Numbered from the stretch's first letter, positions 8,240-63,347 are shown. The stretch is DNA of 64,000 bases from Escherichia phage nieznany (NC_052659.1); one strand, 5' to 3'. Notes: generated by a model not told the origin, from the sequence alone. Numbers and translations: made by a program.

Positions 8240-8256
8240 AAGTCCCCCTTAAAAAC

Positions 8257-8587: not shown

Positions 8588-8960
8588 ACTGTGCTACCTT
8601 TTCTTTTACCCAATCTACACGATCTTTATCATAATGTTGAGTGCCAAGGAAAAGACCATTGTGGAAACTTTCCTCACCGAAAGGATAAATCGGATCTAAA
8701 CCATCTTCTTCAAATAACATTTTTAGTCTCTGTGATGTAGATTTCTTAGTTTCTGAGTTGTAGCTTGTGGTTATAAGCCAATCTTCCAAACAACGACACA
8801 AACCTTGACGAGAATCCCAAGGAAAAACACAATCTCCGACAGGAGCTTGTTCAGCCCATTTCAACCAGCCTTTAAAAAAGTTATACAGTATGTAGTCTTC
8901 AGTGTAATACATTATCTCCTCCTTTACGTATACAATAACACCCCGAAGAACGGGGTGCAA
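8574..8960 (-). CDS. hypothetical protein
   Basis: 128-aa ORF with GGAGGAG RBS. Confidence 0.5.
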   Translation of the reverse strand: MHPVLRGVIVYVKEEIMYYTEDYILYNFFKGWLKWAEQAPVGDCVFPWDSRQGLCRCLEDWLITTSYNSETKKSTSQRLKMLFEEDGLDPIYPFGEESFHNGLFLGTQHYDKDRVDWVKEKVAQYEWG

Positions 8961-8963
8961 CTG

Positions 8964-9575
8964 TTATTTAATCTGTTTGAAAATTTCGTTTGGAACGGTA
9001 CCGTTTAAAATACCTTCTACGATCTCCTGTGCAGATGTGTAAGAGAGTCCAAAAGAAGCTACGCCTAAAATTGCCTCCTTCAAAGGATCTGGCAGGGGTT
9101 CAAAATTACCTGCAACAAAGCCACCTGCACAAGCAGCGCCTTCATCATCCCAGAAAACAACTGCTACATCGTTACCATGCGAAGTTGTGCGATGTGCAAT
9201 AACTTCAACTTCGGTGCCTTCTTTAGGAACAGAATAAGAACTGTCCCAAGAATATCTTTCCAAATCAGGAACAAAGATAACCTTTTCACCTACTGGCGGC
9301 AGTTCACAACGATAATACCAAGAATTTTTTTCGTTCATTGTTTTATTTTCCTCCACGTCTTCAAAAGTAACGATCCAATCGTAGCCGTAAGAAAACGGAT
9401 ATTTTAGATCTAAAGAATAAGTTTGACCTAGATCGTCCTCAACAAGAACCATCCTGTCAAAGTTTGCGATGTTAGGATTATGTTTAATGATAGGGTATGT
9501 TTCCCCTACAGTAAATTGTCCCAAATGGTAAAGTTCATCTCTCCAAGTAATTTGGATATGAGTGCATTGAATCAT
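8964..9575 (-). CDS. hypothetical protein
   Basis: 203-aa ORF. Confidence 0.5.
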   Translation of the reverse strand: MIQCTHIQITWRDELYHLGQFTVGETYPIIKHNPNIANFDRMVLVEDDLGQTYSLDLKYPFSYGYDWIVTFEDVEENKTMNEKNSWYYRCELPPVGEKVIFVPDLERYSWDSSYSVPKEGTEVEVIAHRTTSHGNDVAVVFWDDEGAACAGGFVAGNFEPLPDPLKEAILGVASFGLSYTSAQEIVEGILNGTVPNEIFKQIK

Positions 9576-41623: not shown

Positions 41624-41648
41624 AGGCGCACTTTGCGCCTTTTTTGAT
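41624..41648 (+). terminator. rho-independent terminator
   Basis: AGGCGCACTTTGCGCCT hairpin followed by TTTTTTG. Confidence 0.5.
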
Positions 41649-41716
41649 TTCCCTCAAAGCTTTTTTCGGTTGGAAGAGGTAGAATAATAGTTCTACTCAC
41701 AAAATAAGGATTAATA

Positions 41717-42589
41717 ATGAAAGATTTGTACCAAGATGTTTTTTCTTTTTTAGATCGCACTTCAGAAACATACACTAGAGAGAATGCAAACAAACCTTCC
41801 CACCTCGTTAACACGCATAGGGATCTCTTGGCGGGGATTTTAAGCAAACATATGGCAATGACACAGATACTGCCAAAAAACTTGTCAGAATGGCATACAG
41901 AAGGTTTTGGACATATTCACGACTTGGATTATCTGCTCTCTCCTCTTACAAACTGTTGTCTTGTTAATTATCAAGATATGTTAGAGAATGGTTTTAAGAT
42001 CGGTGCTGCACAGATAGAAAAACCAAAATCTATTGGAGTAGCTACTACCGTGCTAACTCAAATCATCCAAGCTGTTGCCTCCAGTCAGTATGGAGGTCAG
42101 ACGTGTGCGCACATTGATAAAGGTCTTAGTCCTTATGTTGAAGCTAGTTTCCTTAAAAACATGGAGATAACCAAACGTCGCTACGGTTGTTATGCAAGGA
42201 AAGAAGCCCTAGAAATGACCGAACAAGATGTATATGACGCTATGCAAACTCTTTTGTATCAGGTTAACACTTTAATGAGTGTTAATGGACAATCTCCTTT
42301 TATTACAATCAGTATGGGTCTGGATACCTCTGTTTTTGGCAGAATGATCACAGCTAACTATCTTAAAGTGCATAGTAACGGTCTAGGTAAAGATCATGTA
42401 ACGCCTGTATTCCCTAAAGTTATTTTCTTTTTACAAGAAGGTGTTAACATGAAACCTAGTGATCCTAACTACGACCTTAAGCAACAAGCTTTGGCATGTT
42501 GTGCTGATCGTATTTATCCAGATTTTATTTCTGTTCCTTTGAACAAAGAAGTTACGGGGTCAGCAGATGGCACTGTTACGAGTATGGGT
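41717..42589 (+). CDS. nrdD: anaerobic ribonucleoside-triphosphate reductase NrdD, exon 1
   Basis: N-terminal half of class III RNR; frame ends in stop shortly after proposed 5' splice site (..TSMG). Confidence 0.65.
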
Positions 42590-43360
42590 AAACTATAACT
42601 GCTCATGTAAAATCTGCCTAAACGGGGGAACTCTCAACAGAGACAATCCCGTGCTAAACGTAACAGAACTCCCAACACAGAAGAAGGGGGGTACTGATAT
42701 GAGAAAACAAATTCGTGATTTTGAAGGGTATGAAATTGACGAGCTTGGAAATGTTTATTGTACCAGGTATAAGGATGAAAGAATCCTTCGCTCGTGGGAA
42801 GAAATAAACACAGGATACCAACTTGTCAGAATACGTAAAAACAAGAAAACTGTTTGCTTTCGGGTGCACAGACTTGTAGCTGAAGCGTTTTTACCCAATC
42901 CAGACAATTTACCTTATGTGAAGCATAAAGGTGACAATAGGAAAGACAACAGTGTATACAATCTTGAGTGGGGATCTTGTCCAGACAACACGCAAGAGGG
43001 TTACGATAATAACTGTTATGCTTTCTACACAAGGTGTCACAGTGTAAAAGCTACTCATAAGGCTACTGGTGAAGTTTTTTACTTTAAAAGTCTGAGATGT
43101 TGTGCTGACGCTTTAGGGTTGGACAGAAAAAGAATATCTGCAATCTTAAAGCAAGGAGCACCAAATAATTATGATTATGAGTTCTGTTACGAAATGCCTA
43201 ACGACTAGCTGTGATGAATGTAGCAGCGTAGGGTGTAAGCCTATGACACCCCAAATGGTAGACATGCTTTAAGCATGAAGATATAGTCTGATCTGCATGG
43301 TGACATGCAGCAGCACGTAATGGTGCGGGAGTGGCCTTGCGAGCCACTTTGAACATAATG
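42590..43360 (+). mobile_element. group I intron (putative) interrupting nrdD, carrying HNH homing endonuclease ORF
   Basis: Exon 1 ends with T; intron ends with G before TGT(Cys); splicing restores frame giving ..TSMG-CRSFLSYY.. and about 604-aa NrdD. Confidence 0.5.
42699..43208 (+). CDS. HNH homing endonuclease (intron-encoded)
   Basis: GYEIDELGNVY ... VHRLVAEAF ... KHKGDNRKDNSVYNLEW HNH family pattern; own RBS. Confidence 0.6.
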   Translation: MRKQIRDFEGYEIDELGNVYCTRYKDERILRSWEEINTGYQLVRIRKNKKTVCFRVHRLVAEAFLPNPDNLPYVKHKGDNRKDNSVYNLEWGSCPDNTQEGYDNNCYAFYTRCHSVKATHKATGEVFYFKSLRCCADALGLDRKRISAILKQGAPNNYDYEFCYEMPND

Positions 43361-50473: not shown

Positions 50474-51064
50474 ATGTATACCGAGAGAGACTTGCAACTC
50501 TTGTGGTGGGAAGTGATGCAGGAAATAAAAGAAGATTTTCCTGTTTACTACAACATGTTACGTGAAGCAGGATATAAAGCTTGTGTTAGAAACAAAGTGA
50601 ATAACTCTTTCGGTTGGTGCAACTACCGAGATAAAATTGTTGTTGTAAATTGGCACTTGCATAAGAACTCTACAAGAGATATGATCGTGGATACAATGAA
50701 GCACGAAATTGCTCATGCTATTGATGGTTGTATGGGTAAGTTTAGTAGACACGGTGCTCATTGGCAAAAACTGGCAGCAGAGTTAGGGGCTAATCCTAAA
50801 GCCACTTCCAAAGAGCCGTTGAACCACGAATATAAATATGTTCTTGTTCTGGTAGATAGGTTTGCGACAAGATGTGTTAGAGGTTATAATCGTAAACCTA
50901 ATCGCATGTACCCAGGTAAGCAACCTAATATGTGGTTGAAATCAGATAAAGAAGGGACCGAAGGAAAATTATGGTTGTATAAATGGGACGATTGGGTTAA
51001 AGTAGCTAAAGAGTACGGTGTTTCACCATATATAAGAGATGCAGAAGAGGAGAATGAAGAATGA
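50474..51064 (+). CDS. SprT-like zinc metalloprotease domain protein
   Basis: MKHEIAHAI HExxH plus downstream HGAHWQ. Confidence 0.5.
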   Translation: MYTERDLQLLWWEVMQEIKEDFPVYYNMLREAGYKACVRNKVNNSFGWCNYRDKIVVVNWHLHKNSTRDMIVDTMKHEIAHAIDGCMGKFSRHGAHWQKLAAELGANPKATSKEPLNHEYKYVLVLVDRFATRCVRGYNRKPNRMYPGKQPNMWLKSDKEGTEGKLWLYKWDDWVKVAKEYGVSPYIRDAEEENEE

Positions 51065-52173
51065 CAAGTCCATTTTTAAAAGCAGCTACTGGCGGTCAGA
51101 AGAAGCCTGAAATGAGCGTATTTGCTGCAACAACAGATGCAAGTAAATCTGTATTCGCTCCAAGCGTGTTAGATGCCAGTCCTGTTTATGCACCAGCGGC
51201 ACCGCAAGAAGTTCCAGTTTTGCCTTCTATGACCCGACAAGAGATCGAAGAGATTGGGGCAGAGGCAGGAACAACCTTGCGTTCCTTGAATGCCGAGGTA
51301 TTAAAACATCAACGTAGTAATCAAGGCGATCAGATGAGTGAACGACTCACAGCTTTGATTAAACAGGCAAAACAACTTGATCCAAACTCTATTAAACAAA
51401 GCAAGGGTATTACTAAACTCATTAAAAAAGTTATGGGTATGAAAGAAGATCTGTTTGGGGAGTTTGATAATGTTAATAACCGTATTGAAGAGTTGGTAAA
51501 AAACCTTCAAATGGATATTCGCAAAGAAGAAGATTCCTTGGTATATCTTGAAAAGCTACATCAAGCTATTGGACAATATGCTGCAAGTTTGAACCGAGAT
51601 ATGCAGCTTCTAACAGCAACCTATGAAAAAGAAGAACAAGCTTTGGCTGCTCTTCCAGAAGATGCAGTAGAACAGCGACAAGTGATCCGAGATACTTTGG
51701 ATCTTCTGGAGATTCGTATTGCAGATTTAAAAGCATTGCGCCTACTGTGTGTCCAAATGGGACCGCGTGTACAAGGTATGCAAAAAGTTTCTGCAAGCTT
51801 AATGCGATCTGCGCGTAACATAGTAAATAATGTTATTCCTGCTTACTCTGCTAACTTCTCAATGTATATCGAGAGCTTACGTCAAATGAAAGCAGCAGAG
51901 ACGCAGAATAACGTTCTTGATGAATTTAACCTGGCAATTAAACTGGGTAGCGATCTTGCCACACAGAATCAGATCGAAGCAGCAGCACTGGCTAACCGTC
52001 AAGTGTTGGATATTGAAACTCTGCGTCACGATCAGGAAAACTTGGTTAAGATGTTGGAAGAAACTAACCGCATCAATACGGAAGCCCGTGCTGCTCGTGT
52101 TGATTATATTAATGAAGTTCAATCTTTGGAAGACGGGATGGTAGCTGCTGTGAAACGAGGGCTTGGTAAATGA
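51061..52173 (+). CDS. coiled-coil protein, possibly TelA-like (unverified)
   Basis: 370 aa, size and helical character compatible with TelA family; no motif-level proof. Confidence 0.4.
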   Translation: MTSPFLKAATGGQKKPEMSVFAATTDASKSVFAPSVLDASPVYAPAAPQEVPVLPSMTRQEIEEIGAEAGTTLRSLNAEVLKHQRSNQGDQMSERLTALIKQAKQLDPNSIKQSKGITKLIKKVMGMKEDLFGEFDNVNNRIEELVKNLQMDIRKEEDSLVYLEKLHQAIGQYAASLNRDMQLLTATYEKEEQALAALPEDAVEQRQVIRDTLDLLEIRIADLKALRLLCVQMGPRVQGMQKVSASLMRSARNIVNNVIPAYSANFSMYIESLRQMKAAETQNNVLDEFNLAIKLGSDLATQNQIEAAALANRQVLDIETLRHDQENLVKMLEETNRINTEARAARVDYINEVQSLEDGMVAAVKRGLGK

Positions 52174-52370
52174 GAATCCGTATCTATATAATTGATGAGG
52201 ACATTGGTGTCCGTTATGATGACGAAAAACGATTCGCGCCGATGGGAGGCATATATCCCCCAAGTGTTCTAGCAGTTTGTCGTGATTGTTATATTTATGA
52301 AGGTTGTCGTAACTTCCGTAAATTCGAACTCCTTGCAGATATTGACTTCAATGAGGAGGAGGAGGAGTAA
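52170..52370 (+). CDS. small acidic protein
   Basis: 66-aa ORF, Cys pairs and poly-E tail. Confidence 0.4.
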   Translation: MRIRIYIIDEDIGVRYDDEKRFAPMGGIYPPSVLAVCRDCYIYEGCRNFRKFELLADIDFNEEEEE

Positions 52371-52543
52371 TGAAAATATTACGAGTGAATATTGAAACTG
52401 CTTGGTGTGGATGCAATGAGGTTGTGGATATCGAAATTGAAGATGATATGTCTCAAGAGGATATAGAAGATCTTGCACACGAAACCTTTCAGGACTATTG
52501 TAATTACGGGTTCCATATTTTAGAGGAGGAAGAGGATGTTTAA
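52370..52543 (+). CDS. micro-protein (57 aa, acidic)
   Basis: ATG overlapping upstream stop; CGC pair. Confidence 0.35.
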   Translation: MKILRVNIETAWCGCNEVVDIEIEDDMSQEDIEDLAHETFQDYCNYGFHILEEEEDV

Positions 52544-52739
52544 CTACGATAACGACCCTAATATTATCCAGTTAACCCGACAAGAACTGATCACAATCAT
52601 TGAAGATGCTTTTATTGATGGCTGGAATACACAAGACAATGATTGGGGTGGACCCGAAGCTTTTCTGGAACATCATAAAGCTTATGGAGAATTTTGTGAA
52701 ACCACTGTAGCTCTTGATAATCTGAAGGAGGGTTTGTAA
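52536..52739 (+). CDS. hypothetical protein
   Basis: 67-aa ORF. Confidence 0.4.
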   Translation: MFNYDNDPNIIQLTRQELITIIEDAFIDGWNTQDNDWGGPEAFLEHHKAYGEFCETTVALDNLKEGL

Positions 52740-53302
52740 TGGGTTGTTTTAGCTTTTTGTGCAAAGAATCGGGCAAAGCTGCCCTTTCTACTTCTTTCGA
52801 CGGATCACCTTGTTATCTCTTTCTTTTGAAGGACGGTGTTGTTATTGAAGAGATGTATGGCAACTATGATAGTTATGGTTGTGTTTTCTCTGGAAAGGAG
52901 GATGAAAATGGCGTTCGTGAACGGTTCGAATGGGCTATGGATTGGGGTAAGGTTTGTGATTTAATGCATTCCTCGAATCCAAGGGATGGTATCGCTATGG
53001 TGCTGGAAGAGTATTTTACAGGTGAAATCCCTACAGAACAATCTGACGGAGATCCTAACCAAGGTTGGGGTGATGGCGAAGAAGATCCAGATTGTTTTTT
53101 CAGCACAGAAAAGAATAAGTTTAAACGTGTTGACAACCCTTATCACAAAGTGCATAATACTCTCATTGAAACAGAAGATGACAAGATGGAAATTGAAGAA
53201 GATGATCCTCTTGTAACACTTCCTATAAGTGAGTTACAAAAGATCACTAAGGAAGCTTACGATTTGGGCTTCAAAATTGGTAGAGGAGGTATGCGTGTTT
53301 AG
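52739..53302 (+). CDS. hypothetical protein
   Basis: 187-aa ORF. Confidence 0.45.
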   Translation: MGCFSFLCKESGKAALSTSFDGSPCYLFLLKDGVVIEEMYGNYDSYGCVFSGKEDENGVRERFEWAMDWGKVCDLMHSSNPRDGIAMVLEEYFTGEIPTEQSDGDPNQGWGDGEEDPDCFFSTEKNKFKRVDNPYHKVHNTLIETEDDKMEIEEDDPLVTLPISELQKITKEAYDLGFKIGRGGMRV

Positions 53303-53573
53303 ATTCAATATTCAAGAAGAAAAAAGTCAGGATTTACCTATTGCTTTCGAAGATCTTGACGTAGGGGCCACATTCATGTATTATGATGCCTATGAAGACG
53401 CAGGGTTGGATACCTACCGTAACTTGGTGTTCATTAAAAATTCCACAAACAGTGCGATTTGTATTAATGGATCACTAGCACAACGAGGCTATACTCATTG
53501 CATCCCACCAGATACAAATATGGTGGAAGTAGATTTAGAAGTTACCAATATTACACTTAAGAAGGAGAAATAA
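53295..53573 (+). CDS. small protein, paralog A (flanks vWA gene)
   Basis: GTG start; shares ..DLDVG.TF.Y..A..E.GLD.. and EV.L.VT.ITLK with ORF 54595..54864. Confidence 0.45.
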   Translation: MFRFNIQEEKSQDLPIAFEDLDVGATFMYYDAYEDAGLDTYRNLVFIKNSTNSAICINGSLAQRGYTHCIPPDTNMVEVDLEVTNITLKKEK

Positions 53574-53574
53574 T

Positions 53575-54369
53575 ATGTCCGAGAAAATCAGCCTGAAAAA
53601 ACGTCAAGAAAACCTTGCTTTCTCTCTGAAAAAGAATAAGAACCTGAATGAAGGTAAGATTGTTCTTCGTGTAGCATGTGCTCTAGATATTTCTGGTAGT
53701 ATGCATGGTCTATATTCTAGTGGGGTAGTGAGTGATTTTGTAGGTAAACTGCTTCCTTTTGGTATGCTGTTCGACGATAATCAACAAATTGATATGTGGG
53801 CCTTCAATACGAGTTCCCAAGAGCTTACTCCAGCAACAGCAGACGTTTACGATGACTATGTTGGTAAATGTATGCGTAATGTTCGTATCGGAGGTGGAAC
53901 AAATTACGCCCCTGTAATGGCAGATATCTACGATGAGTATTTTGGCACTGTTACCAAATATATTACCACTAAACAAGTGGTACAAGAGGAGGCTCCAAAG
54001 AAAGGCTTCTTTAATCGTCTGCTTGGTAAAACTGAAACAGTGTCTGTAGAGCGTGAAAAAGTTGTAGCTGTATCTGAACCAGGTGCTGACGTTACCCCTG
54101 GTGTTGTATTCTTCCAGACGGATGGTGAGAATGGTGATCCTAGTGCTGTTCGTCGTCTTATTGAAGAGAATAAGAATAAACCTATTTATTGGTTCATGGT
54201 TGGCGTTGGTAATGAGAAGTTTGGCTTCCTGAAAGAACTGGCAAATGCTTATGATAATGTTGGTTTTATTGGCATTAAAGATTTAGACTTGACAGATTCA
54301 GAGCTTTATGACAAACTCTTATCTGAAGAGTTCGGAGAGTGGGTTGTTAAAGTAGGTGCTAAAAAATGA
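53575..54369 (+). CDS. von Willebrand factor A domain protein (TerY-like)
   Basis: MIDAS motif ALDISGSM; N-terminal EKISLKK shared with TerD gene. Confidence 0.55.
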   Translation: MSEKISLKKRQENLAFSLKKNKNLNEGKIVLRVACALDISGSMHGLYSSGVVSDFVGKLLPFGMLFDDNQQIDMWAFNTSSQELTPATADVYDDYVGKCMRNVRIGGGTNYAPVMADIYDEYFGTVTKYITTKQVVQEEAPKKGFFNRLLGKTETVSVEREKVVAVSEPGADVTPGVVFFQTDGENGDPSAVRRLIEENKNKPIYWFMVGVGNEKFGFLKELANAYDNVGFIGIKDLDLTDSELYDKLLSEEFGEWVVKVGAKK

Positions 54370-54614
54370 TCGACGAGCTTGCCTCTCAAGTCGTAGAAAA
54401 TTATTGGCGCGAGAGAGAAGCTTTCATTATGCGCAGTCTCAAAGAGTATTTCATTGGGACTGTGCGAATGGAAGATATTGTAAGTAGAGTAGAGATTCAT
54501 GTATGGCCCGATTATGAAGAATGGGTTGACAAAGAAAATGAAAATGCTATAATTCTTCGTATATACAAACCGGAGATAACATTAGGAGGAAGAAGTGTTA
54601 AACTTCGAAATTGA
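54366..54614 (+). CDS. hypothetical protein
   Basis: 82-aa ORF. Confidence 0.4.
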   Translation: MIDELASQVVENYWREREAFIMRSLKEYFIGTVRMEDIVSRVEIHVWPDYEEWVDKENENAIILRIYKPEITLGGRSVKLRN

Positions 54615-54864
54615 TGAGCAAAAAGTAAATAAACGATGCCTTACCATTAAAGATTTGGATGTAGGAGATACTTTCGTCTATGAAAATGCATTTGACGAAA
54701 ATGGTTTAGACCTTAGTGAAATCATTGTTTATTTAAAAGTAGATGATGGGGAAAATGATTATTCTGCTGTAGAACTAAACCATCATGCACAATTAGTATC
54801 AATCCAAAACACATCTAAGCTTTTGGAAGTAGAATTGACTGTAACTGGTATTACACTTAAATAA
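54595..54864 (+). CDS. small protein, paralog B
   Basis: GTG start; paralogous to 53295..53573. Confidence 0.45.
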   Translation: MLNFEIDEQKVNKRCLTIKDLDVGDTFVYENAFDENGLDLSEIIVYLKVDDGENDYSAVELNHHAQLVSIQNTSKLLEVELTVTGITLK

Positions 54865-54879
54865 TAGAGGAGACAAAAG

Positions 54880-55482
54880 ATGACTGATAAAATTTCCCTG
54901 AAAAAAGGCTCTAGCGAAAAAATTTCCCTGAAGAAAGTTGCTCCGGCTCTGAAAGAACTGCGCCTGGAATTCTCTTGGAAATCTGATTCTAAACTGGATC
55001 TGGATGTAAGTGCACTGGTTTGTCGTCACAATGCCGCTGGCAATCCTGAAATGCTGTCTGCACGTCATCTGGTTTGCTATGCTAACAAGTTTGATCCTGA
55101 ACGTTCTACCTTCGCTGGTGACGATGTTCGTGATGGGACTGGCAGCATGGAGCAGATTGATATTACTCTGGCTAAAATCTCTCCTGATGCACAAGAGATT
55201 GCCTTTGTTCTGACCATTGATGATGATACAGGTCTGAAACGTTTTGGTCATGCTTCTGAAGGTATGCTTAAAATCTTCGACTCCGAGCGTAATGTGGAAA
55301 TTCTGGATTTTGACTTCCTGGCTCCTGAAGTAGCTGGCAACACAATCTGCCACGTGGCTTCCCTGGTTCGTGAAGATGGAGAATGGAAGCTGAAAGCATA
55401 TGGTGTAGGTAAAGCTGGTCTGGATATTTGCGATGTGGTGATGGCCTTCGGTGGTAAAAAAGAATGGTATGAATGTCCATAA
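54880..55482 (+). CDS. TerD-domain protein
   Basis: KISLKK..LKELRLEFSWK..LDLDVSALV ... IAFVLTIDD pattern typical of TerD family; strongly CTG/CGT-biased codons. Confidence 0.7.
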   Translation: MTDKISLKKGSSEKISLKKVAPALKELRLEFSWKSDSKLDLDVSALVCRHNAAGNPEMLSARHLVCYANKFDPERSTFAGDDVRDGTGSMEQIDITLAKISPDAQEIAFVLTIDDDTGLKRFGHASEGMLKIFDSERNVEILDFDFLAPEVAGNTICHVASLVREDGEWKLKAYGVGKAGLDICDVVMAFGGKKEWYECP

Positions 55483-55500
55483 TAATTAACAAATGATTTT

Positions 55501-55528
55501 GAGGGGGAGAAGTCCCCCCTCTTGCAAT
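55501..55528 (+). terminator. rho-independent terminator
   Basis: GAGGGGGAGAAGTCCCCCCTC hairpin followed by T-rich tract. Confidence 0.5.
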
Positions 55529-55582
55529 AAAGCCTCTATCGTGTTATACTAGAAGTTCGTTAACTTAAAAAGGAGGCAAAAT

Positions 55583-56104
55583 TTGCTGATAAAAAACTTT
55601 GTAACAGTTGCGTTACTATCCTTAACTGCTTTTACATTTACACCTGTTGTGGCGAAAGCCGAAGCTGCAAACGTAAAAACCGCTAAAGTAGTTCACAAAT
55701 GTACAAAGCAATATAATGATAAAATTCTATTAGCTTGTGCAATTTACGCAGAAGGTCGCGGTCTGGGTAAAAAAGGAATGAATGCCGTTGGGAATGTGGT
55801 AATCAACAGAAGAAATGATGCCTACTTCCCTAACACAGTCAAGGGAGTCTTGTTCCAGAAAGGGCAATTCTCATATGCGAAAACTTTTAACGTGACAGAG
55901 AAAGATAAGTGGCAGGAAGCAAAAGCAATAGCGGAGCGTTTACTTTATTTAGAGAAACATTTTCCTGAATTGCGGTCTGTTTTAGATGTTACTAAAGGTG
56001 CTCTATACTTCAAGAAACGGAATATAAGGACACACTGGGAGCGTGATATGCGTCTTGTTTATCGAGATAAAGTGCATGGTTTCTATCTACCAAAGGGGAG
56101 TTAA
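55583..56104 (+). CDS. SleB-like cell-wall hydrolase (Hydrolase_2 family) with signal peptide
   Basis: LACAIYAEGRG..GMNAVGNVVINRRNDAYFPNTVKGVLFQKGQFS matches SleB-type conserved block; TTG start after AAAGGAGG. Confidence 0.6.
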   Translation: MLIKNFVTVALLSLTAFTFTPVVAKAEAANVKTAKVVHKCTKQYNDKILLACAIYAEGRGLGKKGMNAVGNVVINRRNDAYFPNTVKGVLFQKGQFSYAKTFNVTEKDKWQEAKAIAERLLYLEKHFPELRSVLDVTKGALYFKKRNIRTHWERDMRLVYRDKVHGFYLPKGS

Positions 56105-56105
56105 A

Positions 56106-56390
56106 ATGCAAGAAGATAATACTGTTGTTGTAGCAAGTTACCTGGTTGTCGGTCTTACCGAAGAGGACGTATACTACACCCGTAAACATTTGGAAGCATA
56201 CGCTACTTTGTTTATGGAAGATGAAAAGGATGTAGATAAATATAGCATTGATATGATCAACGACAGTATTTATCCTTGTATGGTTCTTAAAGTAGATGCT
56301 GTGCTGTGGGAGCGTTTTGCAAGGACTCATGATGCTGTAGAATGCTCCGCAGTAATGTCTCAAAACAACATTTTAGGGGAGATTCACTGA
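56106..56390 (+). CDS. hypothetical protein
   Basis: ATG 56106 after GGGGAG. Confidence 0.45.
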   Translation: MQEDNTVVVASYLVVGLTEEDVYYTRKHLEAYATLFMEDEKDVDKYSIDMINDSIYPCMVLKVDAVLWERFARTHDAVECSAVMSQNNILGEIH

Positions 56391-56620
56391 TGGGAGAAGT
56401 CATTGAAGTAAATTTTCGCACTAAACAAAAAGTGCAAAAATATGTTGTTATTAAAAACATTTGCGTTGTCTGCTTCAATACTGTAATATACGATTCACGA
56501 CGCGGAGAAAACGAAAATGAACCTTACATTGAAATTTCTAAGAACAAAGGTCAATGTATTTGTAAGAACTGTGCAGTAGCTATTAAGGAGGTTGTAAATG
56601 AAAACGCTTGGGACCAATGA
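56390..56620 (+). CDS. small Cys-rich protein
   Basis: CVVCFN ... CICKNC motifs; ATG overlapping upstream stop. Confidence 0.4.
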   Translation: MGEVIEVNFRTKQKVQKYVVIKNICVVCFNTVIYDSRRGENENEPYIEISKNKGQCICKNCAVAIKEVVNENAWDQ

Positions 56621-56789
56621 AACTGGCGAGATCTCTCTTCAAGAAGTGACAAACGACAAGCTGATTAAACTACGGGATGTAGCTCGTGACCATCTCCAAG
56701 AATCTTTTAAAGAATATATGGAAGCACGAGATCGTGTCATCCAAATCCAACAAGAAATGATTAAACGTGGGATTGTAGCTGACAGTTAA
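56598..56789 (+). CDS. hypothetical protein
   Basis: 63-aa ORF. Confidence 0.4.
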   Translation: MKTLGTNETGEISLQEVTNDKLIKLRDVARDHLQESFKEYMEARDRVIQIQQEMIKRGIVADS

Positions 56790-56805
56790 TATAACGGAGG
56801 GGAGA

Positions 56806-57369
56806 ATGATTTATTATATTACTCCCTATCTGACAGGAAATATCGGCAAGGCTATCAATGAAGCTATTGCCGTTCTTCCAGATGATAGTTGGGTGTGCTT
56901 AAGAGATACCGATACAATGTTCCTCCTGCCTGATCAACCATCTATGCTTGAAGAGCTTATTATGTCAAACCCGCCTTTTGATGTAATAGGTGCAACTTGT
57001 AACAGGTTAGGTAGTGGTTATCAGCTTTTCTCTAACCAAATTAACGATGATCCAAATATTCTAAACCATATAGAATATGCTAAGATTGCAAGAGAATATC
57101 ATAAAGTGAGTGTTGAAGAAGTTCCTTTCGGAACACCTCTGGCAGGTTTCTTTTTGCTTTTTAGAAAATCATTGTGGAATGAAATTCCTTTCGAAGAAAA
57201 ATCTATCCAATTCGACCTAATTTTCTCTCGCACTTTACATGAAAAAGGAAAAAGGTTAGGATTGATGCGGGGAATGTATCTGTTTCACATTTACAGATTA
57301 GGTCAAACAAATCCTCAACGGTCTATACATCATTTATTACACTGTCACGATCACAGTAAAACTATCTAG
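56806..57369 (+). CDS. glycosyltransferase-like protein (GT-A-like, tentative)
   Basis: DTD acidic motif (WVCLRDTDTMFL) after hydrophobic strand. Confidence 0.35.
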   Translation: MIYYITPYLTGNIGKAINEAIAVLPDDSWVCLRDTDTMFLLPDQPSMLEELIMSNPPFDVIGATCNRLGSGYQLFSNQINDDPNILNHIEYAKIAREYHKVSVEEVPFGTPLAGFFLLFRKSLWNEIPFEEKSIQFDLIFSRTLHEKGKRLGLMRGMYLFHIYRLGQTNPQRSIHHLLHCHDHSKTI

Positions 57370-57377
57370 GAGAGAAA

Positions 57378-58061
57378 ATGGAAAATATTAAAATCGGAGT
57401 GGGTGTTATCACTGTAGGTGTCCGTCCACTTAAAGACTATCTTGTAACAGATCCACATGCAGATTTTCGAGTATTCAACGATCCAGATCGTAAAGGTGTA
57501 GCTTACGCCAGGAATGAACTTATGCACCAGTTTTATGAAGAAGGTTATGATTATTGGTTTATTTTTGACGACGATTGCTACCCAATCATGGAGGGATGGG
57601 AAACATATTTTGTAGATCAAGCTGTCTCTGGAGGATGGGATTTCTTTGGTATGCCGGAGTATTTCAAAGATAAAGTTGTTGGGAGTAAAGGAGAAGTTAT
57701 TCTCTGGGAACTTGCAATGTGTCAATTTGCAATGTATTCTCGTGCCGTTGTTGAGAAGATGGGTTATTTCCGCCCTTACACTCACGGCTATGGTTTTGAA
57801 GATGCTGAATGGGTACACCGTTTGAAAGCTGCTGGTTTGAATCAGGGCATTCAGGCAATACCTTGTCCACTTCATATCATGGCTTATATCCACCCAGACG
57901 ATGTTTTTGGAAACAATCCTATGCCTTTTGCTAATCTGACAAAAGAAGAGAAAGAAGCTGCTATTGGCATTAACTGGGAAGAATATAAAGCGTCTTTAGA
58001 AGATATTAAAAATGGGAAAATCCGAATTTCTTATGAGGAGGCACTGGCACATGTCAAATAA
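57378..58061 (+). CDS. glycosyltransferase-like protein (GT-A-like, tentative)
   Basis: DYWFIFDDDCYP DxD-type motif. Confidence 0.4.
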   Translation: MENIKIGVGVITVGVRPLKDYLVTDPHADFRVFNDPDRKGVAYARNELMHQFYEEGYDYWFIFDDDCYPIMEGWETYFVDQAVSGGWDFFGMPEYFKDKVVGSKGEVILWELAMCQFAMYSRAVVEKMGYFRPYTHGYGFEDAEWVHRLKAAGLNQGIQAIPCPLHIMAYIHPDDVFGNNPMPFANLTKEEKEAAIGINWEEYKASLEDIKNGKIRISYEEALAHVK

Positions 58062-58998
58062 AAAATGGACTAAACTGAAAATTGATGCAAAACCTCACAG
58101 TGGTTGTGATTATCATCGTATTGTTATACCATTTAACAACAATAATCTTCAACCTAAGAAAGATGTTGTTGTGTTTAACCGTATTCACTCTAAAGGTGCA
58201 GAATATGTTTTGTCCCTGAAACGTCAAGGTGTTAAGATTGTTGTAGATTTAGATGATTTCTACCAACTTAATCCAGAACATTATTTAGCAAGTCTATACG
58301 AGTCAAACACCCATTCTATTGTAGCTATGGTTAAGCTTGCTGATGTGGTCATTGTGACTACGGAATACTTGGCATATAAGATCCGTCACTTAAATAGGAA
58401 TGTTGTTGTGATCCGAAATGCACTTCCTTTTGATAGCGGACAATTCACTTTGTCAAATGATCGTTCATCCGGTACCCCTGTCGTATGGGCTGGCGGTGCT
58501 AGTCACGAACCCGACTTACGACTAGTCTCTAATACTTTCGACGATGACCTTCTTACTATTGCGGGATATGAGGCATCACAGAGCATCACGGGACAAGAGT
58601 GGATTAAGATTCGCAGAAATTTACCAAATGCCAAATATAAAGCCGCTGTAAAAGATTTAGATAATTACATGAGTGTTTACGAGGGTCATGCTATTGCTAT
58701 AGCTCCTCTGGTAGATAACGATTTTAATAATTGTAAAAGTAATCTCAAAATCTTGGAAGCTGGGGCAAAAGGTATTCCAATTGTTTGTTCTAAGGTATTA
58801 CCTTATTTTAACCCTGTAGATGCTCGCGCTGTTGCTTACGCAGAGAATAAAGCAGAATGGCATTACGAAATTGTTAAGCTTCTTCGCAATCCGAACTATC
58901 GGGAAGATCGTGGCTTGTTCTTAGCGGAACATGTTCGAACACATTATAATCTGGCAGATGCAAACGAATTGCGACGCCAGGTTATTGAAAGTTTGTAG
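58051..58998 (+). CDS. glycosyltransferase, GT-B-like C-terminal domain (paralog 1)
   Basis: NxKSNLKILEAGAKGIPIVCS resembles GT4-type E-x7-E region; paralogous to next gene. Confidence 0.45.
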   Translation: MSNKKWTKLKIDAKPHSGCDYHRIVIPFNNNNLQPKKDVVVFNRIHSKGAEYVLSLKRQGVKIVVDLDDFYQLNPEHYLASLYESNTHSIVAMVKLADVVIVTTEYLAYKIRHLNRNVVVIRNALPFDSGQFTLSNDRSSGTPVVWAGGASHEPDLRLVSNTFDDDLLTIAGYEASQSITGQEWIKIRRNLPNAKYKAAVKDLDNYMSVYEGHAIAIAPLVDNDFNNCKSNLKILEAGAKGIPIVCSKVLPYFNPVDARAVAYAENKAEWHYEIVKLLRNPNYREDRGLFLAEHVRTHYNLADANELRRQVIESL

Positions 58999-59005
58999 GT
59001 GAAGT

Positions 59006-59950
59006 ATGGGACAAATAATTCTTGACAATCGTAACGGAATCAATTATAGTGTCTGCGATTTCCATAGGGTAGTGCTGCCTTACTCAAGGCAGTTCTCTTC
59101 ACAACCTAAATACAACGTTTTCGTTTTTAACGGAGTGCCAACAAAAGGTAAAGAGGGCTTTTTAGCCCTTAAAAACCTGGGCTTTAAAATGGTTATGGAT
59201 TTGGATGACTCTTTAGTTATTCCAAAAGGACACATGTTAGAAGGTATTTTTGAATCAGGTATTCGTGAACATTTAAAATGGTTTTTAGAGCACAGTGATC
59301 TTGTTACAACTACGACACCTGCCTTGCAAGTTGAACTTTCACAATACAATGATAATGTGCACATAATCCCTAATGGACTTCCTTACGATGAAGGTCAATT
59401 TGTGTTGACCCGTGATCGCTACTCCAAAACTCCATTAGTCTGGGCTGGAAGTGAAACACATAAACAAGATTTGGCTATCTTGCCCGATTTTGGTAAAGAT
59501 CTTACAATATGTGGTTTTCGTAGGGATTCTGAAGTTTTAAGTAGTCGTGAATGGTCTTTAATCAGGGAAAATGTAGCACCAACTTGTGTTTATGAAGGTG
59601 TAAGACCATATGCCAACTACATGGAATCTTACGATGGTCATCAAATCAGTCTTGCACCATTGATCGATAACGTGTTTAATAATGCAAAAAGCAATCTTAA
59701 AATTCTTGAGGCAGGTGCTAAGGGTTTACCTTTAATCTGCTCTCCTCGTGAGAATTATCATACACAAGAGTTTAAAGATTTGTTATTCTTTGCTGAAACA
59801 CCTTCCGAGTGGAAAGATATTACGGAATACTTATTAAGTGCTCCCGATGTTTGCATGGAGAAAGGATTAGCATTAGCTAAGTATGTCAGGACTCATTATC
59901 ACATTGATGTGTTGAATGAGCGTCGTAGACTTTTATTTGAGGAGCTATAA
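59006..59950 (+). CDS. glycosyltransferase, GT-B-like (paralog 2)
   Basis: NAKSNLKILEAGAKGLPLICS; collinear similarity with 58051..58998. Confidence 0.45.
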   Translation: MGQIILDNRNGINYSVCDFHRVVLPYSRQFSSQPKYNVFVFNGVPTKGKEGFLALKNLGFKMVMDLDDSLVIPKGHMLEGIFESGIREHLKWFLEHSDLVTTTTPALQVELSQYNDNVHIIPNGLPYDEGQFVLTRDRYSKTPLVWAGSETHKQDLAILPDFGKDLTICGFRRDSEVLSSREWSLIRENVAPTCVYEGVRPYANYMESYDGHQISLAPLIDNVFNNAKSNLKILEAGAKGLPLICSPRENYHTQEFKDLLFFAETPSEWKDITEYLLSAPDVCMEKGLALAKYVRTHYHIDVLNERRRLLFEEL

Positions 59951-60228
59951 TGATTAACACTTTTGATTTTGAATACACCACTCGTAACGGGAAAGCCTTG
60001 GTTGTGGAGGTGGATTACTATTATGAAGAACCTAATCCACTTTCTCGTGAAAGCGATTGGGATTACCACGGAGGGCTTTTAATTGACGGTATTCGTTTTT
60101 ATGAAGGATCTACAGAAGTTTTTGAAAAAGATTTAAATGTAACTGTAGCAGAAATTGCTTTCCAATTTAGAAAGCACATGGAAGAACTAGAAGCAGAATA
60201 TATGATGGAGACTAACGAACCATTTTAA
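59950..60228 (+). CDS. hypothetical protein
   Basis: 92-aa ORF. Confidence 0.4.
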   Translation: MINTFDFEYTTRNGKALVVEVDYYYEEPNPLSRESDWDYHGGLLIDGIRFYEGSTEVFEKDLNVTVAEIAFQFRKHMEELEAEYMMETNEPF

Positions 60229-60240
60229 CAGGAGAACAAA

Positions 60241-62019
60241 GTGTCGCACATTATAACTAAATATGGATTTGATGTTGATCTTAGCAAGGAAGGGCATACA
60301 GGTTGTCCGCGCTGCATGAAAAATGGCAAGGATCGCTCTCGTAATAACCTGATGGTTTATGGATTAGATTCTAATGGAGAGCATAAAGGTGCTAAGTGCT
60401 TTGCGTGTGAATACACTATTCCTAGCGTAGAATGGTTACGAGAAAATGGTGAAGTTTTAGAAGAAGAGGAGGAGATTGTGGGTTCGGAATTTAATAAACA
60501 GATTCATCGTAAAATTGTTCAAGAAACATCAACCAACCCACGTGGTTATCGAGGCATTAAAGAAAAAGTTTCATCTTTCTATGGTGTTCGTTATGAATAC
60601 CGTCAGGAAGGGGATCAGATGGTAGTAGAAAGTTGTTTATATCCAACTACTATCGGTAAAGAATTGGTTGGTTTTAAGCGTCGTATTCATCCTAAAGATT
60701 TCAGTAAACCTATTGGTCAAGTAGGTAAAGATGTAGATCTTTTTGGACAAATTCGTTTTGCAGACCGTTCTCATACTGTGGTAATTACAGGTGGTGAACA
60801 CGATGCTCTGGCAGCTTATCAAATGCTGTCTGAAAACTTGGACAACAAATATGAACTTCCAGCAGTAGTTAGTGGCACAACTGGTGAAACCAGTATGTAT
60901 AAACAAGTTCAGGCACAATACCCTTTCTTTGAAAAATTTAAGAAGATTATTGTTTGCATGGATAATGACAAAGCAGGTAATGAGGCATTTGAAAATATTG
61001 TTAAGGTGCTGCCTCGTAACAAAGTCTACCGTATGCAGATGGATCTTAAGGATGCCAATCAGTATCTGGAAGAAGGTCGTGCAAAAGATTTCGTAAAAGC
61101 TTTTTGGAGTGCTCGTCTATACACCCCAGCAGGTGTTTATGCTTCTAATGTCTTGTATGAAGCTGCATTAGAATGCTTGGAATCCAAGATGATTACCTTG
61201 CCTCCTTTTATGCGTGTTGCTGCAAATATGCTGGGTGGTGGTTTAGTAGAGGAAGAGATTACAGTCATCCTGGCAAAGACCAGTATCGGTAAAACTTTGA
61301 TGGTGAACGAGATCACCAAACATATTATTGTTGCGCACCCAGAACATACCCTAGGTATTCTGTCCTTGGAAGCAACTTATAAGAAATATTCTCGTAACCT
61401 GTTGTCCTCGTTCCTGCATATTCCTCTACACAGGAAAACACCGGAAGAGAAATTTCAAATCTTGGAAGAGAATAAAGAAAAAATCCTAGATTTTTACGAA
61501 AGAGAAGATGGATCACCACGTTTTTATGTGTGTGATGATCGTGGAGCAGATGTGGAGTCTATCAAAGAAAAAGTTTTGGAGATGATCATCTATTTTGGAG
61601 TAACAATTCTTGTTATCGACCCTTATTCTGATTTGCTTTCTGGTATGGATGTTCAAGCCCAGGAAGAGTTAGCAACATGGTTGAAGCGCATCATGAAAGA
61701 GTATGCTATAACTATTATCGTCATCTCACACGTTAAGAAATCGGCTAATGGTGGCAATGAACACTTAACAGAGGACGATGCAATGGGTAGTAGTTTCTTG
61801 GCTAAAGGTGCTGGTATTACCTTGGCTTTGGAACGAGATAAAGCCGCTGAAGACCCTGTAGAACGCAATACGACTCATTGCTTTATCCTAAAAAACCGTG
61901 AGTTCTCGGAAACTGGTCCGGCAGGGCAGTTTTACTATGACATTAGAACTGCAACTCTGCATGACAAAGAGCAGTATTTCAACAATCCTGCTAATTTGCC
62001 TACGGATAGCAACTACTAA
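60241..62019 (+). CDS. bifunctional DNA primase-helicase (T7 gp4-like)
   Basis: N-terminal Zn ribbon CPRC..CFAC; TOPRIM-like region; Walker A-type AKTSIGKT; GTG start. Confidence 0.7.
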   Translation: MSHIITKYGFDVDLSKEGHTGCPRCMKNGKDRSRNNLMVYGLDSNGEHKGAKCFACEYTIPSVEWLRENGEVLEEEEEIVGSEFNKQIHRKIVQETSTNPRGYRGIKEKVSSFYGVRYEYRQEGDQMVVESCLYPTTIGKELVGFKRRIHPKDFSKPIGQVGKDVDLFGQIRFADRSHTVVITGGEHDALAAYQMLSENLDNKYELPAVVSGTTGETSMYKQVQAQYPFFEKFKKIIVCMDNDKAGNEAFENIVKVLPRNKVYRMQMDLKDANQYLEEGRAKDFVKAFWSARLYTPAGVYASNVLYEAALECLESKMITLPPFMRVAANMLGGGLVEEEITVILAKTSIGKTLMVNEITKHIIVAHPEHTLGILSLEATYKKYSRNLLSSFLHIPLHRKTPEEKFQILEENKEKILDFYEREDGSPRFYVCDDRGADVESIKEKVLEMIIYFGVTILVIDPYSDLLSGMDVQAQEELATWLKRIMKEYAITIIVISHVKKSANGGNEHLTEDDAMGSSFLAKGAGITLALERDKAAEDPVERNTTHCFILKNREFSETGPAGQFYYDIRTATLHDKEQYFNNPANLPTDSNY

Positions 62020-62020
62020 G

Positions 62021-62040
62021 GGCTTCGGCCCTTTTATTAA
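62021..62040 (+). terminator. rho-independent terminator
   Basis: GGGCTTCGGCCC followed by TTTTATT. Confidence 0.5.
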
Positions 62041-62049
62041 AAATACCTG

Positions 62050-62078
62050 TTGACAACTTTGCGGAAGGGACTTATACT
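62050..62078 (+). promoter_or_regulatory. sigma70-like promoter TTGACA-N17-TATACT
   Basis: Immediately downstream of terminator, upstream of ORF 62112. Confidence 0.5.
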
Positions 62079-62111
62079 TGTCTCATCAACCAAACAAGAG
62101 GAGAAGTAAAA

Positions 62112-62552: not shown

Positions 62553-63347
62553 TTGAGCAAGTTGAACACACTTGATCAATATTACACTAACCCCGCTTAT
62601 GCGGGGTTCTTATGTGATAAGATCAAAGAAATTTTTGGAGAGGAAGCTAACTACGTAGAACCATCTGCGGGAGAAGGAGCTTTCTCTTCTTGTTTTAAAA
62701 ACATAACTTCTTTTGATATTGATCCTAAGTTTGAAGATTGTATTGAGGCAGATTTTTTAGCTCAATCTGTAGAGTCTGTTGGTAGTGTAACTGCTTTTGT
62801 CGGTAATCCTCCGTTTGGAAAAAATGCTAGTCTTGCCATTAAGTTCTTTAACCATTGTGCTGAAATGTTGGATAACGAAGGTGGTATTTGTTTTATCTTG
62901 CCTCGCACATTTCAAAAAATCTTTTTTGCACACAAACTAAATCCCCACATGCATCTTCTTTACGAAGAAGAATGTCCAAAAGGATCTTTTATTCTTCATG
63001 GAGAACCTTGGGATGTTCCTTGTGTATTCCAGATATGGACTAAACGCAACGAGAAGCGTTCTCCCGTTGTTTTAGGAGAAAATCGACTATTCGTATTAGG
63101 CAACAGTAAAGACTACGACATAGCCGTTAGGAGAGCGGGAGCAAGTGCAGGTAAAGTGTTATCAGAAGAAGATTCTTTATCTGAAGCATCTACCTATTTT
63201 TTAAAAGCCTTGACTTCTGATCTTAAAACGCGTATCATTGAGGCTTACCCGTTACTTAAAGCTGAAGCTAGTAAAACTGCGGGAGTAAGAAGTTTAAGTT
63301 TAAAAGAACTTCAGTGGGTTCTGGAGAACATTAGAAAGGAGGAATAG
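62553..63347 (+). CDS. N6-adenine-type DNA methyltransferase
   Basis: EPSAGEGAF (SAM-binding) and VGNPPFG motif; TTG start after TAAGGAGG. Confidence 0.55.
   Translation: MSKLNTLDQYYTNPAYAGFLCDKIKEIFGEEANYVEPSAGEGAFSSCFKNITSFDIDPKFEDCIEADFLAQSVESVGSVTAFVGNPPFGKNASLAIKFFNHCAEMLDNEGGICFILPRTFQKIFFAHKLNPHMHLLYEEECPKGSFILHGEPWDVPCVFQIWTKRNEKRSPVVLGENRLFVLGNSKDYDIAVRRAGASAGKVLSEEDSLSEASTYFLKALTSDLKTRIIEAYPLLKAEASKTAGVRSLSLKELQWVLENIRKEE

Follow-up and report, generated by a model that had tools for sequence, protein, structure and literature searches.

A mobile four-gene glycosyltransferase module of Phapecoctavirus and the possible glycosylation of virion proteins

Four adjacent genes on the plus strand of Escherichia phage nieznany (NC_052659.1) encode glycosyltransferases; they lie within a 64,000-nucleotide stretch of that genome (here called the window) at 56806-57369 (open reading frame 1, ORF1), 57378-58061 (ORF2), 58051-58998 (ORF3) and 59006-59950 (ORF4). 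The stepwise glycosylation of proteins of the phage particle is the best explanation of their function, at a probability that we put at roughly 0.4. The four soluble, cytoplasmic, nucleotide sugar-dependent (Leloir) enzymes would constitute a conserved glycan-building module, paired with a deoxythymidine diphosphate (dTDP)-L-rhamnose pathway (RmlABCD) that is specified elsewhere in the genome, and would act in sequence to generate a short glycan, probably containing rhamnose, on an acceptor other than DNA. Sequential assembly is suggested by the pairing of the module with a phage-encoded dTDP-L-rhamnose pathway. The acceptor would be one or more proteins of the particle, in the manner of the glycosylated virions of Che8.

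The window belongs to the genus Phapecoctavirus (subfamily Stephanstirmvirinae), the phAPEC8-like myoviruses with genomes of ~150 kb. Over the region 55500-62100, nucleotide identity is 99.7% with Escherichia phage vB_EcoM-Ro121lw (Ro121lw), which is the closest relative of the window, and 99.5% with ESCO13; 69 phage records cover 80% or more of this query. At the level of gene labels the existence of the four genes is not a new finding: the RefSeq label "glycosyltransferase" is already attached to all four in ESCO13, ESCO5, Schickermooser and ZCKP1, and these labels, like the Rml pathway, were public before. What is new is the evidence-based move away from DNA as the acceptor, the definition of the mobile module, and its linkage to virion-glycosylation contexts.

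Two GT-A and two GT-B enzymes

A sequence-only reading of the window had proposed four sugar transferases, two of them GT-A-like with DxD motifs and the others a paralogous GT-B pair sharing a motif. The four reading frames are present on the plus strand exactly where it had placed them (ORF listing), and PHROG, Pfam, structural and alignment evidence bears out the assignment; all four genes encode real glycosyltransferases. Each protein strongly matches a PHROG family labelled glycosyltransferase; none of the four matches an NCBIfam model. None has a hydrophobic or transmembrane segment (the maximum 19-residue Kyte-Doolittle hydropathy is 0.76-1.65).

ORF1, which defines the GTA1 family, is a minimal stand-alone GT-A glycosyltransferase (187 residues; isoelectric point, pI, 6.1) with a single Rossmann-like α/β/α fold, and counts SpsA with bound dTDP among its structural neighbors. 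Its DxD motif (D34-x-D36) is invariant in 22 ORF1-family sequences, as are N66-R67-L68, A113-G114, an LLFRKSLW stretch and H161xYR. The family is large (~1000 clusters at 50% identity) and lacks a curated model; no relevant Pfam model matches ORF1. The acidic ORF2 (227 residues, pI 4.9; phrog_2456, E = 7e-79) represents the GTA2 family, which is strongly acidic throughout (pI 4.7-5.3). The GT-A motifs of ORF2 are likewise preserved: D64-D65-D66, E141 and D142 are invariant in 14 family sequences, together with R45, F61-I-F before D64, Y138-G139, I171 and D175, and H172 and P173 are nearly so, with the consequence that the motifs FIFDDD, YGxED and most of IHPDD are invariant or close to it. Both of the anticipated DxD motifs are, then, real and invariant within their families. 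The Pfam matches of the ORF2 family all fall below cut-off (TAGT in 13 of 14 members, with a best E of 3.4e-4; Glyco_transf_7C in 7/14; GT2 in 6/14). For ORF2 itself the best of these is TAGT, at 19.2 bits against a cut-off of 27.5 and confined to ~36 residues around the DxD motif; there is also a weak match to phrog_842, "beta-glucosyl-HMC-alpha-glucosyltransferase". Sequence searches of the PDB with ORF1, ORF2 or their family profiles yielded nothing useful. Profile-profile comparison of the two families found no relationship, and the notion that ORF1 and ORF2 might be paralogs was rejected for that reason: they are two unrelated minimal GT-A enzymes.

ORF3 (315 residues, pI 8.5) and ORF4 (314 residues, pI 5.6), in contrast, are paralogs, at 42% identity (E = 2e-78), and the motif that they share is N[CA]KSNLKILEAGAKG.P..CS, much as the sequence-only reading had it. 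(A further ATG lies upstream of ORF3 at 58012; the RefSeq start is the equivalent of 58051.) ORF4 has the GT-B fold, two Rossmann domains with an interdomain cleft, and is GT4-like. ORF3 belongs to phrog_7162 (E = 7e-149) and scores below the Pfam cut-offs (19.2 bits for PF13524, Glyco_trans_1_2; 21.4 bits for PF13692, Glyco_trans_1_4); ORF4 barely passes that of PF13524 (25.2 bits against 25.0), and its C-terminal motif KSNLKILEAGAKG is of the CgeB/YkvP type that this Pfam family describes. The canonical E-x7-E motif of GT4 enzymes is altered in both paralogs to [AC]-K-S-N-L-K-I-L-E: of the two Glu residues E235, the second, is kept, the first being replaced by Ala or Cys beside an invariant K228. 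On our reading of this motif, the GT-B pair would be nearer to the CgeB-type PF13524 enzymes than to classical GT4.

The top structural neighbors of the GT-B include PglA, WlaC, PimA, WbnH, WaaG and TarM, as well as glycosyltransferases of small molecules (BshA, MshA, TreT and sucrose-phosphate synthase); GT4-type enzymes rank above the T4 DNA glycosyltransferases, to which the GT-B fold is also related. Within BFVD (searched with Foldseek), the neighbors of ORF4 are CgeB-like glycosyltransferases of a cyanophage and of giant viruses. Sequence search of the PDB with the GT-B profile returned only weak, C-terminal GT4 matches. GtfA/GtfB-type pairs have one inactive partner; there is no evidence for such an arrangement here, ORF3 and ORF4 both keeping every invariant column of the family alignment.

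The sugar donor

ESCO13 encodes RmlA, RmlB, RmlC and RmlD in an operon that lies outside the 64-kb window, and each protein clears its NCBIfam equivalog cut-off: RmlA (gp087) with 459.5 bits against 360.65, RmlB (gp088) with 429.8 against 365.1, RmlC (gp086) with 224.3 against 155.75, and RmlD (gp085) with 238.0 against 224.05. The RmlA of Ro121lw is 100% identical to that of ESCO13. With relatives 99.5-99.7% identical to it so endowed, phage nieznany should itself have the operon. That the module is functionally tied to 6-deoxyhexose nucleotide sugars is supported by a 24-kb viral contig (L037) in which a gene for an RmlB-like short-chain dehydrogenase/reductase (7943-9013) is inserted between glycosyltransferase genes of the ORF1 and ORF2 types; its product is of the nucleoside diphosphate-sugar dehydratase/epimerase type and scores 142 bits against the phage RmlB. 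The phage dTDP-L-rhamnose pathway is the likely donor for the glycosyltransferase cluster, and rhamnose would then be the sugar that is actually transferred.

The Rml pathway of Phapecoctavirus and the phi92-like phages was noted by Olsen et al. 2020 (PMC7552041), whose guess was that it serves the rhamnosylation of hydroxymethylated nucleotides. Some Stephanstirmvirinae genomes match RmlA only partly (query coverage is 18% for OZ035771, phage DIJ07P2; 45% for PQ529420, Eryne; and 92% for OR352955, AV125), and at least DIJ07P2 keeps an intact glycosyltransferase cluster, so that a host which provides dTDP-rhamnose may make the phage pathway unnecessary.

A module that moves between phages

The glycosyltransferase genes constitute a mobile module that moves horizontally between phages. 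Phapecoctavirus and phi92 share the order ORF1-ORF2-GTB-GTB; a set of related contigs (L031-L033) is missing the ORF2 type, and Klebsiella phage KP13-26 has just the ORF1 type and one GT-B gene. An HK97-like prophage of Serratia has the same families in the same order (GTA1-GTA2-GTB), preceded by lysis genes and followed by an HNH gene and terminase. Elsewhere a P22/Sf6-like contig has GTB and GTA2 between TerL and portal; lambdoid contigs have GTA2-GTB between the Q antiterminator region and the genes for holin and lysozyme; and in Pseudomonas prophages GTA2-GTB follows the gene for an immunoglobulin (Ig)-domain structural protein and precedes terminase, portal and protease. The Ig-like protein of the Pseudomonas sp. 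App30 prophage (208 residues, L009 8645-9271; phrog_215, "structural protein with Ig domain"), specified directly 5' of the pair of ORF2-type and GT-B genes, is a candidate glycosylation substrate or decoration protein.

Relatives of the GT-B proteins are found in at least 567 IMG/VR contigs. At ~30% identity there is a large clade whose recurrent neighbors are large terminase (35 loci), an acyltransferase with hexapeptide repeats (28), a ParB-like/methyltransferase-type protein (26) and an S-adenosylmethionine (SAM)-dependent methyltransferase (14); in environmental phages the acyltransferase and the SAM methyltransferase flank the GT-B relatives upstream of TerL. Two small proteins recur beside GT-B genes in loci L044-L109: one of ~162 residues upstream (51 loci; for example, L078 29-517), with no Pfam or PHROG match, and one of ~140 residues directly after (40 loci; for example, L107 2026-2448), matching only phrog_2859 (function unknown). 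These could be additional components of the module, or acceptors. Distant GT-B relatives in bacteria are domains of giant multi-glycosyltransferase fusions (GT2 + GT4 + GT2 + PF13524-like). As to the listed hosts of the phages, five records of "Campylobacter phages" assigned to C. jejuni (MG065650, MG065689, MG065639, MG065645 and MG065656, which are B15, A110a, A150, A145 and C3, respectively) match the cluster as well as do the E. coli Phapecoctavirus and Justusliebigvirus genomes, the DNA of B15 being 98.3% identical; the host labels are probably wrong or the result of contamination.

Proteins of the particle as acceptors

To judge by homology, two of the three glycosyltransferase families have relatives in particle-glycosylation contexts: ORF2 is homologous to gp104 of phage Wee, and a domain of the ORF1 family occurs in the capsid module of Cellulophaga phage phi18:2. 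For ORF2, tblastn finds matches in ~350 Mycobacterium phage genomes, and the hidden Markov model of its family aligns to the N-terminal GT-A domain of Wee gp104 (E = 6e-15; BLASTP, 8.5e-14). The Wee cassette, one of the cluster-F mycobacteriophages as is that of Che8, consists of gp104, an APH-like kinase and gp108, followed by a terminal HNH gene, and gp108 is 86% identical to Che8 gp110, making gp104 the cassette-mate of a gp110 ortholog. As Freeman et al. 2023 are cited in PMC12363180, Che8 gp110 is essential for capsid glycosylation, and the accounts of the same work in PMC12363180 and PMC12619734 have the mycobacteriophage glycans on capsid and tail tube shielding particles from antibodies. 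The ORF1 family corresponds to the C-terminal domain of phi18:2 gp39, whose N-terminal domain is a TOD1/MUCI70-like glycosyltransferase; the gp39 gene follows those for portal, minor capsid protein and a Methyltransf_24 protein, and precedes those for prohead protease and major capsid protein.

The module resembles the Che8-type cassette in comprising two to four clustered soluble phage glycosyltransferases, in the variation of glycosyltransferase content among close relatives, and in the company of glycan-tailoring methyltransferases. Its temperate-phage copies also share with Che8 and Wee a layout of glycosyltransferase genes, small ORF and HNH gene, which in the temperate phages is followed by terminase and in Che8 and Wee lies at the end of the genome. 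The differences are that the Pfam matches of the three Che8 glycosyltransferases are all to families of the GT-A type (GT2 and GT25; in gp108 a GT2 domain is fused to a sugar-O-methyltransferase domain), whereas the present module is built around GT-B; that the window genes belong to the replication region of a lytic E. coli myovirus of 150 kb; and that this phage lineage provides its own dTDP-rhamnose.

There is also a more distant analogy. The capsid or fibril glycans of chloroviruses and mimivirus contain rhamnose, and the crust of the Bacillus subtilis spore involves SpsA, CgeB and the Rml homologs SpsI-L. A self-encoded 6-deoxyhexose pathway acting with a GT-A and a CgeB/YkvP-type GT-B enzyme on a proteinaceous shell would be common to these systems and the phage module: ORF4 passes the threshold of the CgeB-type family PF13524 and has CgeB-like viral enzymes as structural neighbors, and SpsA with dTDP is a neighbor of ORF1. 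This resemblance is at the level of fold and family, with no close sequence relationship.

Several facts weigh against glycosylation of the particle. For ORF1, ORF3 and ORF4 no significant similarity to the glycosyltransferases of Che8 or Wee is seen, and the specific match of ORF2 is to Wee gp104 rather than to the experimentally tested Che8 proteins: to Che8 gp108, gp109 and gp110 it shows only generic GT-A similarity. The window cluster sits in the replication region and not with late structural genes; placement among structural or packaging genes is a property of the Serratia and Pseudomonas prophages, the P22-like and lambdoid contigs, and phi18:2. A position next to terminase is also typical of DNA-modification genes. 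In ESCO13, neither the capsid and decoration proteins nor those of sheath and tube have distinctive Ser/Thr-rich C-terminal tails. No earlier report of virion glycosylation in a phage with a Gram-negative host is known to us, and the literature found contains no report of a glycosylated virion protein or of glycoproteomics for this phage group. A 2026 cryo-electron microscopy study of phi92, with atomic models for most virion components, makes no mention of glycans, glycosylation, sugars, extra or unexplained density, or post-translational modification. 

The more ambitious proposition that the cluster and its own dTDP-rhamnose pathway make up a self-sufficient virion-glycosylation system, the first in phages of Gram-negative hosts, with the minimal GT-A family of ORF1 and the GT-B family both being dedicated particle-glycosylation enzymes that have spread as a mobile module among very different phages, is advanced only tentatively.

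Gene neighborhood and transcription

The cluster is compact, with an 11-nt overlap between ORF2 and ORF3, and the stop codon of ORF4 overlaps the start (ATGA) of a small conserved plus-strand ORF (59950-60228; 92 residues; phrog_4240, function unknown). The latter separates the cluster from the primase-helicase gene (60241-62019), directly upstream of which the sequence-only reading had placed the glycosyltransferases. That reading also had the cluster next to a SleB-like hydrolase (55583-56104; Pfam Hydrolase_2, E = 2e-17); three small ORFs lie between this gene and ORF1. Its two nearby DNA methyltransferases reduce to one methyltransferase-like gene of the N6-adenine type, with an NPPF motif (62553-63347): the supposed cytosine-5-like enzyme finds no counterpart, since no ORF of the window has the PCQ and ENV motifs (motif scan).

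The 92-residue ORF is conserved 3' of the GT-B gene only in contigs of the Stephanstirmvirinae type and is absent from the modules of temperate phages. The small ORFs that flank the cluster were considered as parts of the mobile module and rejected, being specific to the Stephanstirmvirinae lineage. The product of 62553-63347 (264 residues; hypothetical in RefSeq) has the motifs VEPSAGEGAF and NPPF of an N6-adenine γ-class methyltransferase-like protein and belongs to phrog_5172, with a match to phrog_799, "DNA methyltransferase" (E = 1e-10). The SleB-like hydrolase has an apparent N-terminal signal peptide (MLIKNFVTVALLSLTAFTFTPVVAKA). Because its gene lies in the early/middle region, distant from those for the lysozyme (gp082) and Rz-like spanin (gp279) of ESCO13, the hydrolase may be something other than the main endolysin, its annotation notwithstanding.

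A perfect σ70 consensus promoter (54526-54553: TTGACA, 16 nt spacer, TATAAT, with the extended -10 TG) lies upstream of the string of TerD, SleB, glycosyltransferase and primase genes, and further 11/12 matches to the σ70 promoter are found at 53130, 59022 (within ORF4) and 62050. From ~52.8 kb through to where the primase-helicase gene ends, there is no convincing plus-strand terminator. With σ70-like promoters upstream and no plus-strand terminator intervening, the cluster looks to be co-transcribed with early/middle replication genes.

Upstream of the cluster lies a Ter-type block with genes for TelA-like (51061-52173), vWA/TerY-like (53575-54369) and TerD-like (54880-55482) proteins. The corresponding block of ESCO13 (gp205-gp225; locus L001 9491-19983) continues upstream with TerC, a PRTase_3 phosphoribosyltransferase (144 bits), a hydrolase and a phosphatase. 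Two small ORFs of the block, 53229-53573 (114 residues) and 54595-54864 (89 residues), specify paralogs (33% identity, E = 3e-13), each encoded just 5' of a gene whose product has an "ISLKK" N-terminus (the vWA and the TerD-like protein, respectively), an arrangement that suggests tandem duplication of a two-gene unit.

Alternative acceptors

Acceptors in the host envelope are an unlikely alternative, and still a serious one. Soluble glycosyltransferases would, in this case, work at the cytoplasmic face of the membrane, using dTDP-rhamnose to modify intermediates linked to undecaprenyl pyrophosphate (Und-PP) or the core of lipopolysaccharide (LPS); Und-PP-GlcNAc is the first intermediate common to the synthesis of enterobacterial common antigen (ECA) and O-antigen. 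The phage could benefit through superinfection exclusion, or through the masking of its ECA/LPS receptors on infected cells and debris. The GT-B neighbors PglA, WlaC, PimA, WbnH, WaaG and TarM do act on lipid-linked or membrane acceptors, the giant fusions of the bacterial GT-B relatives have an architecture that we associate with polysaccharide assembly, and early/middle co-transcription with replication genes suits host takeover. The moron-like position of the module in temperate phages is compatible with lysogenic conversion. Vequintavirinae and their relatives use ECA and LPS-core glucose as receptors (BASEL, PMC8594841), and the authors of the ZCKP1 study proposed that its glycan genes modify surface polysaccharides of the infected cell and so hinder superinfection (PMC6141743). 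None of the four proteins has, however, a hydrophobic membrane-spanning segment, and the annotation of ESCO13 lists no flippase, no bactoprenol glycosyltransferase (GtrA/GtrB-type) and no initiating transferase. Several small phages hold the genes inside their late structural operon, and the ORF2 homolog in a mycobacteriophage virion cassette and the ORF1-family domain in a capsid module point to the particle instead. Phage glycosyltransferases that alter the surface glycans of the host are familiar from GtrABC-type seroconversion, which relies on membrane proteins: the GtrA flippase, the GtrB bactoprenol glycosyltransferase and a serotype-specific membrane glycosyltransferase. The four window proteins are soluble, and the ESCO13 annotation includes nothing Gtr-like; a Gtr-type system was accordingly rejected. 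A decidedly improbable further option is that the acceptor is a small molecule, such as a Ter-associated, nucleoside-like metabolite, or else a host protein (the enzymes then being effector-like) or RNA. The cluster does lie immediately downstream of the Ter-type block, whose PRTase, HAD-type hydrolase, phosphatase and TerC/TerD/TelA/vWA genes were considered as the source of such a metabolite, and GT4-like folds include the small-molecule enzymes already listed. Anantharaman, Iyer and Aravind reportedly predicted in 2012 that Ter clusters make a nucleoside-like metabolite, and the block at 51061-55482 is one that we take to resemble their modules. In temperate phages, however, the module has no Ter genes in its vicinity, so that its linkage to Ter is a peculiarity of this lineage; four glycosyltransferases with tailoring enzymes suggest an oligosaccharide and not a single glycoside; and no specific acceptor candidate has emerged.

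The alternative that the sequence-only reading had put forward, multi-step glycosylation of modified DNA bases, and that Olsen et al. had anticipated (PMC7552041), in which rhamnose and other sugars are added to hydroxylated bases for the evasion of nucleases, is improbable, and would have to be sparse, sequence-specific or condition-dependent. It has features in common with known DNA glycosylation (the α- and β-glucosyltransferases of T4, TAGT, the 5mYOX-associated enzymes, and the arabinosyl-5-hydroxycytosine of RB69 and DLP3): the use of several GT-A and GT-B enzymes in sequence, nucleotide sugars sometimes made by the phage, and genes placed among those of DNA metabolism, the cluster here lying upstream of the primase-helicase, the N6-adenine methyltransferase-like gene and DNA polymerase I. 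The sub-threshold TAGT (13/14 members) and phrog_842 matches of the ORF2 family point the same way, as do the resemblance of its R...DDD...ED to the R...DDD...EDY/F signature of DNA-modifying phage GT-A enzymes and the structural kinship of GT-B with the T4 enzymes. Environmental GT-B relatives are near ParB-like/methyltransferase-type genes and terminase, neighbors of the sort that Pyle et al. report for DNA glycosyltransferases (10.1101/2023.12.21.572611). All of these points are weak or non-discriminating. The TAGT similarity of ORF2 itself does not extend beyond the surroundings of the DxD motif, GT4-type enzymes outrank the T4 DNA glycosyltransferases as structural neighbors, the ORF2 family is strongly acidic, and small temperate phages have the module with no base-modification genes nearby.

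Known DNA glycosylation also has a prerequisite. In phages it starts from a hydroxylated base, made by a ThyA homolog or by a TET/JBP-type dioxygenase (PMC13326640; 10.1101/2023.12.21.572611), and glycosyltransferase contigs with no 5mYOX or ThyS neighbor are less likely to be DNA-modifying (Pyle et al., 10.1101/2023.12.21.572611); neither paper mentions rhamnose or dTDP donors. The whole annotation of ESCO13 contains no ThyA-type hydroxymethylase or 5hodCMP synthase and no TET/JBP dioxygenase (a very divergent dioxygenase among its many hypothetical proteins is possible), and ten of its mid-sized unannotated proteins compared with Pfam gave only the ThyX-like gp098, NT5C, PRTase_3, SprT and DUFs. 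The ThyX-like protein (332 residues; ESCO13 41640-43256, locus L002, outside the window) is divergent (Pfam Thy1, 33 bits over a partial model) and is the sole thymidylate synthase-type enzyme found in the genome, its gene adjoining those for an NT5C-type 5'-deoxynucleotidase and nrdAB; that it might act as a base hydroxylase is pure speculation.

In a collection of phages of avian pathogenic E. coli (APEC) that includes ESCO13 and ESCO5, HincII (GTYRAC) cut the DNA of all but three T-even-type phages, the resistant ones being the Mosigvirus ESCO10, the Dhakavirus ESCO47 and the Tequatrovirus ESCO58 (PMC10269720); among the DNAs that were cut are those of ESCO13 and of other Phapecoctavirus and Justusliebigvirus phages. 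The phi92-like phages, including PaulScherrer, EmilieFrey and JohannJBalmer, are "exceptionally susceptible" to restriction-modification systems (BASEL, PMC8594841), and their genus carries these glycosyltransferase families and RmlA; individual matches are seen in each of the three. With no base-hydroxylating enzyme found in ESCO13, no cytosine-5 motifs in the window ORFs, cleavage by HincII and sensitivity to restriction-modification, the bulk replacement or decoration of bases by a glycan is very unlikely. That DNA is rhamnosylated sparsely or at particular sites, by way of some novel hydroxylation, is a far-fetched proposition. The sequence-only reading had named two observations that together would count against DNA glycosylation, canonical nucleosides in virion DNA and domain searches speaking against glycosyltransferases: of these, the proteins are glycosyltransferases after all, and liquid chromatography-mass spectrometry of virion-DNA nucleosides is not reported, the literature having turned up no data on glycosylated nucleosides in Stephanstirmvirinae virions. 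The evidence agrees better with what it had offered as the other possibility, that phage proteins or the surface glycans of the host are modified, than with DNA.

Implications

As an account of bulk DNA, the suggestion in print that the dTDP-rhamnose pathway is there for DNA glycosylation is probably mistaken, which bears on predictions of how sensitive these phages are to restriction systems. Two large families of phage glycosyltransferases that lack curated models are also defined here, one of minimal GT-A and the other of widespread GT-B enzymes. Phapecoctavirus and Justusliebigvirus are broad-host-range coliphages that have been isolated repeatedly for therapy or biocontrol of APEC, uropathogenic and enterohemorrhagic E. 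coli, and Klebsiella. If their particles do bear a self-made glycan that contains rhamnose, antibody recognition, pharmacokinetics and host range could all change, as with the glycosylated mycobacteriophages; if, instead, it is the host envelope that is remodeled, the outcome would be receptor masking or superinfection exclusion by a lytic phage.

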